Sequence record: PP216085
Direction: 5' to 3' (one strand)
Length of the DNA: 64,000 nucleotides
Origin: Escherichia phage vB_EcoM_HZ_ZJUN4
Made by a program: the position numbers and the translations under genes. The notes under the pieces are model-generated. The model searched no databases. It saw only the letters and a program-made list of their open reading frames with translations, and was not told where the DNA came from. This document shows, piece by piece, positions 25,999 to 27,889 of this stretch (within the stretch, counting starts at the first letter, position 1; each line of letters begins with the position of its first letter).

Positions 25999-27027
25999 AT
26001 GTCATCAATACCTTGGATTGATAATGAGTTTGCATATCGTGCGCTAGCTCATTTACCTAAATTCACACAAGTAAATAATAGTTCAACTTTTAAATTGCGG
26101 TTTAGATGCCCTGTTTGTGGAGATTCAAAAACCGACCAAAATAAAGCCCGTGGATGGTATTACGGCGATAATAATGAAGGAAATATTCATTGTTATAACT
26201 GTAACTATCATGCACCAATCGGAATATATTTAAAGGAGTTTGAACCTGATTTATATCGTGAGTATATCTTTGAAATAAGAAAAGAAAAAGGTAAAAGTCG
26301 TCTAGTAGAAAAACCTAAAGAACTTCCTAAACAACCCGAGAAGAAAATAATTAAATCTCTTCCGTCATGCATTAGATTAGATAAACTGGCGGAAGACCAT
26401 CCAATTATAAAATACGTAAAAGCTCGCTGTATTCCAAAGGATAAATGGAAATATCTTTGGTTTACAACCGAATGGCCTAAATTAGTTAATAGTATAGCAC
26501 CAGGAACATATAAAAAGGAAATACCTGAGCCTCGTCTTGTTATTCCAATTTATAATGCTAATGGAAAAGCTGAGTCTTTTCAAGGACGTGCATTAAAGAA
26601 AGATGCTCCTCAAAAATATATCACCATCAAAGCTTATCCTGAGGCAACAAAAATCTATGGAGTTGAACGAGTTAAAGATGGTGATGTATATGTTCTAGAA
26701 GGACCTATAGATTCACTTTTTATTGAAAATGGTATAGCTATTACGGGTGGTCAATTAGACCTAGAAATTGTTCCATTTAAAGATAGACGTGTATGGGTTT
26801 TAGATAATGAACCTCGTCACCCTGACACTATTAAACGAATGACTAAATTAGTTGATGCAGGAGAAAGGGTTATGTTTTGGGATAAATCTCCCTGGAAATC
26901 AAAAGATGTTAATGATATGATTAGAAAGGAAGGTGCAACCCCTGAACAAATTATGGAATATATGAAAAATAATATTGCCCAAGGGTTGATGGCTAAAATG
27001 CGGCTATCTAAATATGCTAAGATTTAA
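25999..27027 (+). CDS. 61: DNA primase gp61
   Basis: 342 aa; N-terminal zinc ribbon CPVCGDS..CYNCNYH; TOPRIM-like region. Confidence 0.9.
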   Translation: MSSIPWIDNEFAYRALAHLPKFTQVNNSSTFKLRFRCPVCGDSKTDQNKARGWYYGDNNEGNIHCYNCNYHAPIGIYLKEFEPDLYREYIFEIRKEKGKSRLVEKPKELPKQPEKKIIKSLPSCIRLDKLAEDHPIIKYVKARCIPKDKWKYLWFTTEWPKLVNSIAPGTYKKEIPEPRLVIPIYNANGKAESFQGRALKKDAPQKYITIKAYPEATKIYGVERVKDGDVYVLEGPIDSLFIENGIAITGGQLDLEIVPFKDRRVWVLDNEPRHPDTIKRMTKLVDAGERVMFWDKSPWKSKDVNDMIRKEGATPEQIMEYMKNNIAQGLMAKMRLSKYAKI

Positions 27028-27224
27028 ATTAACCCAACCAAAGCAAATGCTAAATCTACGAATGTATCAAGAGTAATTACTGGAATACTAACGCCATGAG
27101 CAATAGCAACTGGCGATAAAACAAAATTCCAAAGTAAAATTCCTATCATAGCAGAAATAGTAAAAGCTATACGTTTTTTATTACCTTTGATGGCATTAAC
27201 AAGTGCCATTAATTTTTGTACCAT
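27024..27224 (-). CDS. hypothetical small membrane protein, antisense to the early gene block
   Basis: 66-aa hydrophobic ORF with strong AGGAGG SD 7 nt before ATG; late-promoter-like GATAAATA just upstream on minus strand; stop overlaps gene 61 stop. Confidence 0.5.
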   Translation of the reverse strand: MVQKLMALVNAIKGNKKRIAFTISAMIGILLWNFVLSPVAIAHGVSIPVITLDTFVDLAFALVGLI

Positions 27225-27269
27225 GCGTCGTCCTCCTTTAAATTAAATATTTATCGCAAATTTTACAAA

Positions 27270-27305
27270 ATTTGTTTACTTTCTCAGCTTGTTGTGGTAT
27301 TATAA
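27270..27305 (+). promoter_or_regulatory. T4-type early promoter (GTTTAC 27274-27279, TATTAT 27298-27303)
   Basis: Consensus-like elements 25 nt upstream of ATG 27329. Confidence 0.55.
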
Positions 27306-27328
27306 AATAAACTGCTGAGGATAATATA

Positions 27329-27889
27329 ATGATTAATAAAATTGTACATGAAATGGCTTTAAACGGAGATTCATATAAAATATCTGCCGTAGTTGAGAAT
27401 TTTATACTTAATAAAGTAAAAGAATATTTCACTGATTGTTCAGTTAATTATCAAGAAAAAATGGTTTTAACTGACGATACTGAAAAATCAAATAATTTGT
27501 TTTGTTCGAATTTTACCACTAAGAAGCGTACTAGACGGTTTGATATTGTTATTGCTCGTAATGGTAAAAAGCATATAATTGAAATCAAACACCAAGTTGG
27601 TGGAGGTACAGCTATTGATTCGGTTGGAATATATTTAGAAGATAAAGATAAATTAAAAGAATACACAAAAACTGAAAATCCTGTGTCATTGATGATATTA
27701 GATTTTTTGCCATGCGGATATTATCCGCGTAATAAGTGGACAAAAAGAGAATCATTTACTAATAATCCAACCATCCAAGCAAGGTTTAATGAATATGCTA
27801 AATCACAAAACGTGTTAGTATTACTATCAAATGCATATGATGAAGAATTATATAATTCGTTTTTTGCTGCAATAAATGAGAGAATATAA
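27329..27889 (+). CDS. hypothetical protein with PD-(D/E)xK-like motif (FDIVI..x13..EIK); putative nuclease, translationally coupled to dam
   Basis: 186-aa ORF with own promoter and GAGG SD; stop overlaps dam ATG (TAATG); motif inference only. Confidence 0.55.

Follow-up and report, generated by a model that had tools for sequence, protein, structure and literature searches.

In Escherichia phage vB_EcoM_HZ_ZJUN4, a T4-like phage (Tequatrovirus; PP216085), the DNA methyltransferase gene dam is preceded by an open reading frame (ORF) of 186 amino acids (aa), here called X. X and dam together are the true module in this region, and the module is gained or lost as a unit. That X belongs to the PD-(D/E)xK restriction-endonuclease fold is well supported by a structural model, and the protein is a predicted nuclease. 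We consider it probable, if only somewhat, that X is the endonuclease half of a compact restriction-modification (R-M)-like cassette, X followed by dam, which is mobile among T-even-type phages and likely directed at GATC. Positions are those of the window, the whole stretch of 64,000 nucleotides (nt) that was analyzed. The features which matter most here are:

27257-28668, no strand assigned: X-dam cassette, approximate extent, about 1.4 kb; absent as a unit from RB10-type Tequatroviruses
27274-27303, + strand: early-promoter-like site, GTTTAC (27274-27279) ... TG-n-TATTAT (27298-27303), which would drive X and dam
27329-27889, + strand: X, 186 aa, 21.6 kDa, isoelectric point 8.3; PD-(D/E)xK protein resembling a type II restriction endonuclease
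27889-28668, + strand: dam, 259-aa D12-class N6-adenine (GATC) methyltransferase (Pfam MethyltransfD12, E 1e-50)
27261-27809, no strand assigned: segment of about 549 bp missing in T4 and PD112-type phages, from alignment and junction

Linkage, variation and loss of X and dam

X is a real gene under purifying selection. The ratio of non-synonymous to synonymous substitution rates (dN/dS) lies at 0.09-0.20 for close relatives and at 0.14-0.35 for most of the more distant pairs, homologues reach down to about 31% identity, and an intact full-length X is found in about 150 genomes of three genera. The protein matches phrog_8706 over its full length. GAGGA lies upstream of the gene at 27317-27321, and the promoter scan called the site further upstream as TTTACT-17-TATTAT with a TG extension. 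The record of phage ASO78A lists this site as a T4 early promoter and that of JB75 as a promoter; it is lost in T4, where it falls within a deletion. A 64-aa minus-strand ORF with a GTG start (27238-27432) lies across the promoter and the first part of X; its PHROG match is no more than marginal (E 0.019), and it was dismissed as spurious.

The Dam protein of the window is 98.8% identical to T4 Dam by tblastn (about 99% when T4 and T2 Dam are both considered), and the T4 record describes T4 Dam as methylating GATC sites. The stop codon TAA of X and the ATG of dam share one base (TAATG, 27887-27891), and the Shine-Dalgarno sequence of dam, GAGAG (27878-27882), is placed within the last codons of X. 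The junctions of the homologues show that the dam ribosome-binding site lies within the final X codons in each lineage and that the start/stop overlap is conserved.

The linkage of the two genes was surveyed with BLAST summaries and by individual inspection of about 20 loci. Wherever a homologous locus extends into the gene after X, this gene encodes a D12 methylase and either overlaps or adjoins the 3' end of X. This holds for three genera and for two genome positions; the loci are metagenomic (L004-L013) or come from T2, Dhakavirus MX01, Klebsiella Jiaodaviruses and about 148 Tequatroviruses. In the Klebsiella Jiaodaviruses, the pair (42-44% identity) is flanked by denB and ndd and is far removed from gene 61. 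Only six of the 143 Jiaodavirus genomes have it, each time as a unit, and the flanks are joined in the others. The pairwise identities of X and of Dam correlate with each other (r = 0.86). No X without dam was found in this survey, nor was there an X beside the more distant T4-type Dam genes (RB16, RB49, Miro; <60% identity). X and dam thus share two properties of type II R-M pairs: the nuclease gene adjoins the methylase gene and is inherited with it, and the methylase can stand alone while the nuclease never occurs without a methylase. An initial annotation of the window had noted a restriction-modification-like arrangement of the 186-aa ORF with dam, and the link turned out to be stronger than was claimed, with X beside a Dam gene in every informative locus, including the Klebsiella phages.

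Two loci deserve separate mention. The X-dam locus of greatest distance is metagenomic (L005, 1664-3844), and in it dam is followed by a 726-aa protein without a Pfam match and not by gene 56. The X-dam region of KPV15 (NC_055715.1) exceeds that of SmallBear_ER8 by about 290 bp and its alignment is split in two, so that an additional insertion in the cassette or next to it seems likely.

When a 1.1-kb query was searched with megablast, its flanks matched in 503 phage records and only 145 of these spanned the whole query. The interval between gene 61 and dam is therefore polymorphic. Three states are seen in Tequatrovirus: X with dam (about 148-154 records), dam with a damaged X (about 30 records), and neither gene (about 320 of the 503 records, which match on the side of gene 61 and a neighboring 66-aa ORF only). 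RB10 represents the third state, with the order 61, 66-aa ORF, 56. Dam is preceded by X in about 80% of the Dam-positive Tequatroviruses.

The lesions in X are of several kinds. T4 and PD112 have a common junction, TTTATCGCAAA joined to ACGTGTTAGT. The short direct repeats CGCAAA (27255-27260) and CACAAA (27804-27809) mark the ends of this deletion. The promoter is gone together with about 160 codons of X, only the final ~80 bp of the gene still precede dam, and the allele is present in about 33 records. T4 is a deletion derivative, because these last ~80 bp are kept in front of dam. In Bas37 (KarlGJung), a deletion of ~370 bp in X between GATGATAT repeats has removed the catalytic residues, and X is frameshifted in G29 and ESCO58. 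In T2 (L016, 2001-2546), the loss of one base in a T-run replaces the last nine residues of X by four others (..YNSFLLQ*), so that the protein is five residues shorter. This frameshift is found in all T2 records, including M22342 from 1988, and leaves X and dam 13 bp apart and uncoupled. At least four independent inactivating lesions of X were counted in Dam-positive Tequatroviruses, with the C-terminal frameshift of T2, which may or may not inactivate X, as a fifth lesion, while 453 of the 454 Dam matches are full length. The putative nuclease gene is lost and the methylase gene kept, never the reverse, which is the pattern expected of R-M pairs. The initial annotation had taken the ORF for a possible accessory insertion that T4 does not have, and had proposed the comparison with T4 and T2. 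This comparison shows that only the 3' end of X remains in T4 and that T2 carries X with its altered C-terminus, so that a mere insertion which T4 does not have was rejected.

Fold and candidate active site of X

The AlphaFold2 model of X, built from the family alignment, has a mean predicted local distance difference test score (pLDDT) of 89.6 and a predicted template modeling score (pTM) of 0.85. It shows the alpha-beta-beta-beta-alpha-beta core fold of the PD-(D/E)xK superfamily, and every significant Foldseek match of the model is a PD-(D/E)xK nuclease. MunI is the best solved structural match, followed by Can2, VC1899, AF1548, and then many type II restriction enzymes. The whole 186-aa protein is one restriction-enzyme core without an extra domain. 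A PD-(D/E)xK nuclease had been suspected by the initial annotation from the spacing of D and EIK, with structure prediction as the proposed check. The predicted nuclease fold, the Foldseek matches and the invariant residues D72, E85 and K87 lend good support to this idea, and the fold extends over the entire protein.

In nine full-length X homologues (down to 31% identity), E23, D72, E85, K87, H88, Q89 and G93-S98 are invariant. The alignments point to E23, D72, E85 and K87 as candidate catalytic residues.

E23: This residue is paired with E152 of DpnII when the X family profile is compared by hhalign with an alignment of genuine DpnII-family proteins.

D72: D72 is the conserved aspartic acid on strand 2. 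The equivalent residue in MunI is D83, and hhalign pairs it with D201 of DpnII.

E85 and K87: These residues form the (D/E)xK element on strand 3. They align with E98 and K100 of MunI, and E85 is paired with E214 of DpnII. In the Klebsiella-phage homologue of X, 14 of 20 residues agree with the catalytic hairpin D83...E98-I-K100 of MunI (BLASTP E 9e-5).

K87 to S98: The motif KHQxxGGTAIDS is conserved. At the place which corresponds to the GNAxER motif of MunI and EcoRI (AATT core), X has an invariant GGTAIDS, as judged by eye. A MunI/EcoRI specificity is unlikely for X because GNAHER is replaced by the invariant GTAIDS. In addition, the phage could not protect AATT, because this sequence offers neither a cytosine nor a Dam site.

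The MunI sequence used for these comparisons is an exact match to 1d02 except for the engineered D83A substitution of 1d02. The DpnII sequence was checked as well (Pfam E 3e-100; 99% identity to the database protein P0019).

A likeness to DpnII was also seen in profile searches. DpnII, an enzyme that acts at GATC, is the top Pfam family for five of the nine members of the X family that were scanned, X included (E 8e-5 to 1e-2), and the other four gave no DpnII Pfam match. The scores are 17.8 bits for X and 15.7-22.5 bits for its relatives, all under the gathering cut-off of 23. The PADLOC model REase_II matches X with E 3.6e-5. In the hhalign comparison, residues 1-97 of X were aligned with residues 126-226 of DpnII (E 8e-4, probability 24%, 93 columns, from shallow alignments). 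According to models of both proteins, the order of secondary structure elements in X is that of the C-terminal half of DpnII, one for one. X covers only about positions 145-235 of the DpnII profile and does not have the full-length architecture of ~280 aa. Matches of X to NCBIfam (FolD-type models, E about 0.01) were regarded as noise.

Relatives of X form about a dozen clusters, all from phages or metagenomes, in searches of 5.8 billion clusters (single sequence and profile) and of 1.8 billion representatives. No cellular protein related to X was detected in three very large protein searches, with the single sequence and the profile, and the same searches gave no sequence bridge between the X family and cellular restriction enzymes. 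HMMER searches of the PDB sequences with X, the family profile and the Klebsiella-phage homologue gave no meaningful match. Two metagenome proteins (P0008 and P0010) have the C-terminal part of X fused to an epimerase-family domain and an AsnA-like domain, respectively; both are probably assembly chimeras.

Literature searches found no paper describing X. The T2 dam sequence of 1988 (M22342) holds the entire X ORF with the methylase alone annotated, and the record of phage Shinka (MZ502379) labels X as "putative DpnII restriction endonuclease".

The 66-aa ORF and the other neighbors

The region upstream of the cassette contains the following features:

25218-25829, + strand: adfA/61.2, upstream neighbor
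25831-25995, + strand: 61.1, between adfA/61.2 and gene 61
25999-27027, + strand: primase gene 61, followed by the region in question and then by dam and gene 56
27024-27224, - strand: conserved 66-aa small membrane-protein ORF (dam.1 in RB10; phrog_2024), outside the X-dam cassette
27187-27212, + strand: terminator-like hairpin and T-run from the scan, located after gene 61 and within the 5' end of the 66-aa ORF

The initial annotation had combined the 66-aa ORF and X into a two-gene module. We rejected this grouping, as the 66-aa ORF is a core gene that accompanies gene 61 throughout: T4 has it, RB10-type phages have it but carry neither X nor dam, and it also occurs in about 189 phages that are more remote. 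In total, it occurs in 692 phage records, the about 189 distant ones with roughly 50% identity, and it abuts the 3' end of the primase gene in antisense orientation at every locus examined. The T4 copy is intact, 92% identical to that of the window, and unannotated (NC_000866, 17738-17938; L003, 2739-2939). The T2 copy is unannotated too (LC348380, 16642-16839), while most other Tequatrovirus records annotate the ORF and RB10 carries it with the note "dam.1".

The ORF matches phrog_2024 with E 1.9e-30 over positions 1-65 of 65. Its dN/dS is 0.10-0.23 for close pairs, and divergent versions of 63-66 aa retain the pattern WN...P.A...G...P..T. The hydrophobic character noticed in the initial annotation agrees with the hydropathy profile, in which the N-terminus is basic (KGNKKR), residues from about 19 to 43 form a clear hydrophobic helix, and residues 45-66 are again hydrophobic. 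The Shine-Dalgarno sequence AGGAGG (27232-27237, CCTCCT when read on the + strand) is located 7 nt before the ATG. Further upstream, GATAAATA (complement of 27248-27255) agrees with the T4 late-promoter motif TATAAATA at seven of eight positions. As read from the sequence, ATAAATA is found about 12 nt upstream of the ribosome-binding site in both the window and RB10, with differing surroundings. The ORF encodes a conserved small membrane protein which is probably expressed late. Its stop codon overlaps that of gene 61 in TTAA (27024-27027). Phage ASO78A has an annotated rho-independent terminator at the place corresponding to 27187-27212. The hairpin is inside the first codons of the 66-aa ORF, and the same DNA is therefore a terminator on one strand and coding on the other. 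All the sequence features that the initial annotation listed for this region (Shine-Dalgarno sequence, late-promoter-like site, early promoter, overlapping stop codons, TAATG and the D...EIK motif) were recovered at the same coordinates.

At the 61.2 position, the window has a full-length AdfA, anti-DarT factor A (25218-25829, + strand; Pfam PF23813, E 2e-129). T2 and JB75 have shorter genes at this position (108 and 118 aa, respectively), and RB10 has none. This anti-defense locus is polymorphic among close relatives. For gene 56 (dCTPase), the mechanical ORF 28714-29247 (+ strand) begins with TTG; the conserved start MAHFNEC corresponds to the ATG at 28729, five codons beyond the TTG.

Possible function of the cassette and related systems

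If X is the nuclease of an R-M-like cassette, the following course of events can be proposed. The promoter at about 27274-27303 would drive early transcription of X and dam, and translation of dam would be coupled to that of X. X would act as a small, presumably homodimeric enzyme that belongs structurally with MunI and EcoRI and has D72, E85-x-K87 and E23 in its active site. GATC would be its most likely target, and the N6-methyladenine which the partner Dam introduces would prevent cleavage. The phage DNA would be self-protected, and DNA with unmethylated GATC in the infected cell would be cut, which may come from co-infecting relatives without dam, from other phages, or from plasmids. After the loss of X, dam would persist as an orphan methylase, which is the state of T4. 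We infer the nuclease activity, dimerization, GATC specificity, methylation sensitivity and biological target of X.

GATC is the most depleted of the 256 tetramers in the window, with 72 sites observed and 210 expected (observed/expected ratio, O/E, 0.34), and X itself has no GATC at all. None of the hexamers GGATCC, AGATCT, CGATCG and TGATCA stands out beyond the tetramer effect, and the window shows no depletion of AATT, which forms the core of the MunI site. The O/E of GATC is 0.46 in RB10, which has no cassette, and about 0.3 in the Klebsiella T4-like loci. Avoidance of GATC is a known feature of enterobacteriophages and has been attributed to Dam/MutH (PMC5014478).

Several points weigh against a GATC-directed R-M cassette. 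The depletion is no specific evidence for it, because it is lineage-wide, including RB10, and known in enterobacteriophages. The likeness to DpnII is below the Pfam threshold and has a low hhalign probability, hence it is a lead and not a membership, and the stretch that matches is the generic catalytic hairpin. MunI, which is closest in structure, reads CAATTG and not GATC, and its GNAHER is GTAIDS in X. The independent lesions of X are few, and the frameshifts could be sequencing errors. A nuclease that is sensitive to GATC methylation would have no host target, because the enterobacterial hosts are Dam-positive, and to name relatives without dam or other phages as the target is speculation. 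Glucosyl-hydroxymethylcytosine shields T-even DNA from most type II enzymes. The need for protection by Dam is unproven, because this modification already shields the DNA.

A far-reaching form of the proposal takes this last point into account. X would cut even glucosyl-hydroxymethylcytosine-containing DNA at GATC unless the adenine is Dam-methylated, and the cassette would be both a phage-versus-phage weapon and a selfish element. We regard this form as rather improbable. If it is true, the cassette would, in mixed infections, destroy or convert the Tequatroviruses without dam, which are roughly two thirds of them all; it would also provide the long-missing purpose of T-even Dam and contribute to the strong GATC depletion.

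Other roles of X have to be weighed against these proposals. X could be a free-standing homing-type endonuclease that cuts genomes without the cassette close to where 61 meets 56 or denB meets ndd; X and dam would then be copied into them by repair, with Dam as a passenger or as a protector of the donor site. The cassette indeed has a sporadic distribution (about 30% of the Tequatroviruses, 4% of the Jiaodaviruses), at each of two loci it comes and goes as a whole, and X lies between conserved genes like the T-even seg and mob genes, with segF two genes away in T4. We nevertheless hold homing to be just as improbable as the weapon, as the best structural and sequence matches of X are orthodox type II restriction enzymes, whereas the known T-even homing enzymes are of the GIY-YIG or HNH type (SegF is noted as GIY-YIG in the T4 record). 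Moreover, a homing enzyme needs no methylase, yet X was never seen without one and the start/stop overlap is conserved. Homing partly overlaps with the R-M explanation, since R-M pairs can behave as selfish elements.

A slightly smaller probability is given to a nuclease for host DNA, or a methyl-directed one, which would attack cytosine-containing, Dam-methylated GATC DNA; the phage Dam would top up the methylation, and the phage DNA would be spared by its glucosyl-hydroxymethylcytosine. Such a role would suit the early promoter, which host-shutoff genes have as well, and the position of the Jiaodavirus cassette next to denB and ndd, both of which act on host DNA. As the GATC sites of the host are already methylated, only a methyl-directed enzyme would be expected to find targets there. 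The 186 residues of X are all restriction-enzyme core, however, without a methyl-reading domain (winged helix, SRA), and its nearest relatives MunI and DpnII act on unmethylated sites. In Dam-positive hosts such an enzyme would do its work without the phage Dam, hence alleles with X only would be expected, and none was seen. Least probable to us is that X keeps the fold with no role as a nuclease, as a DNA-binding regulator, a specificity partner of Dam, or a decaying restriction relic. In its favor, repeated losses of X have had no evident cost, the robust laboratory phage T2 carries X with a frameshift at the C-terminus, and X is smaller than MunI (202 aa) and DpnII (288 aa). On the other side, the E/D/ExK residues are invariant to 31% identity at a dN/dS of 0.09-0.3, whereas a relic or pure binder would not need catalytic residues, and the gene is intact and full length in many genomes across the three genera. 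Both the methyl-directed and the non-nuclease role are made less likely by the conservation of the active site and by the strictness with which X is paired with dam.

For the R-M-like cassette, which we favor, the main consequence concerns dam itself. T2 and T4 Dam have been model methyltransferases for decades, and their benefit to a hypermodified phage DNA stayed unclear. Most T-even phages from nature that have Dam carry its gene in second place within a conserved, mobile pair, whose first gene T4 has deleted. T4 Dam thus looks like a secondary orphan, the surviving half of a phage-borne R-M pair. X points to a new family of predicted, very small restriction enzymes (186 aa), which could have practical use. 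The annotations corrected here concern the 66-aa ORF, which the T4 and T2 records lack, and X, which is labeled hypothetical in almost all records.

Among the known systems, R.MunI (type IIP, EcoRI structural class, PDB 1d02) is structurally closest, with only about 13% overall identity to X. As read from the sequences, a 13-residue loop before GNAHER is missing in X. MunI cuts CAATTG, whereas the partner Dam of X acts on GATC.

The R.DpnII/MboI family (PF04556) resembles X in that the conserved E, D and E align and the partner methylase DpnM is of the same D12/Dam class; by analogy, a partner of the DpnM class would give X the same GATC site. In contrast to X, DpnII has an extra N-terminal part (residues 1-125; about 125-140 aa) and carries E-x-N where X carries E-x-K. 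The methylase genes come first in the DpnII operon, and the order of the X-dam pair, with X first, differs from this.

The seg/mob homing endonucleases of T-even phages are sporadic, intergenic and confined to phages like X. They have a different fold, and unlike them, X is obligatorily paired with a methylase. The classic "orphan" methyltransferase, T4/T2 Dam, is the same gene as dam of the window, which follows X and is hence no orphan in about 80% of the Dam-positive Tequatroviruses.

The chlorella-virus pair R.CviAI/M.CviAI (GATC) is an example of a lytic virus with an endonuclease and an adenine methylase, in which the own DNA is protected and other DNA is cut. The unmethylated host DNA is the target of such enzymes in chloroviruses. 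The enterobacterial host of the X-dam phages is Dam-methylated, unlike in the chlorovirus case, so the target must differ. Virus-borne pairs of a restriction-like nuclease and a methylase are hence a known kind of system, and the special interest of X and dam is that T4 Dam is reframed as a secondary orphan.

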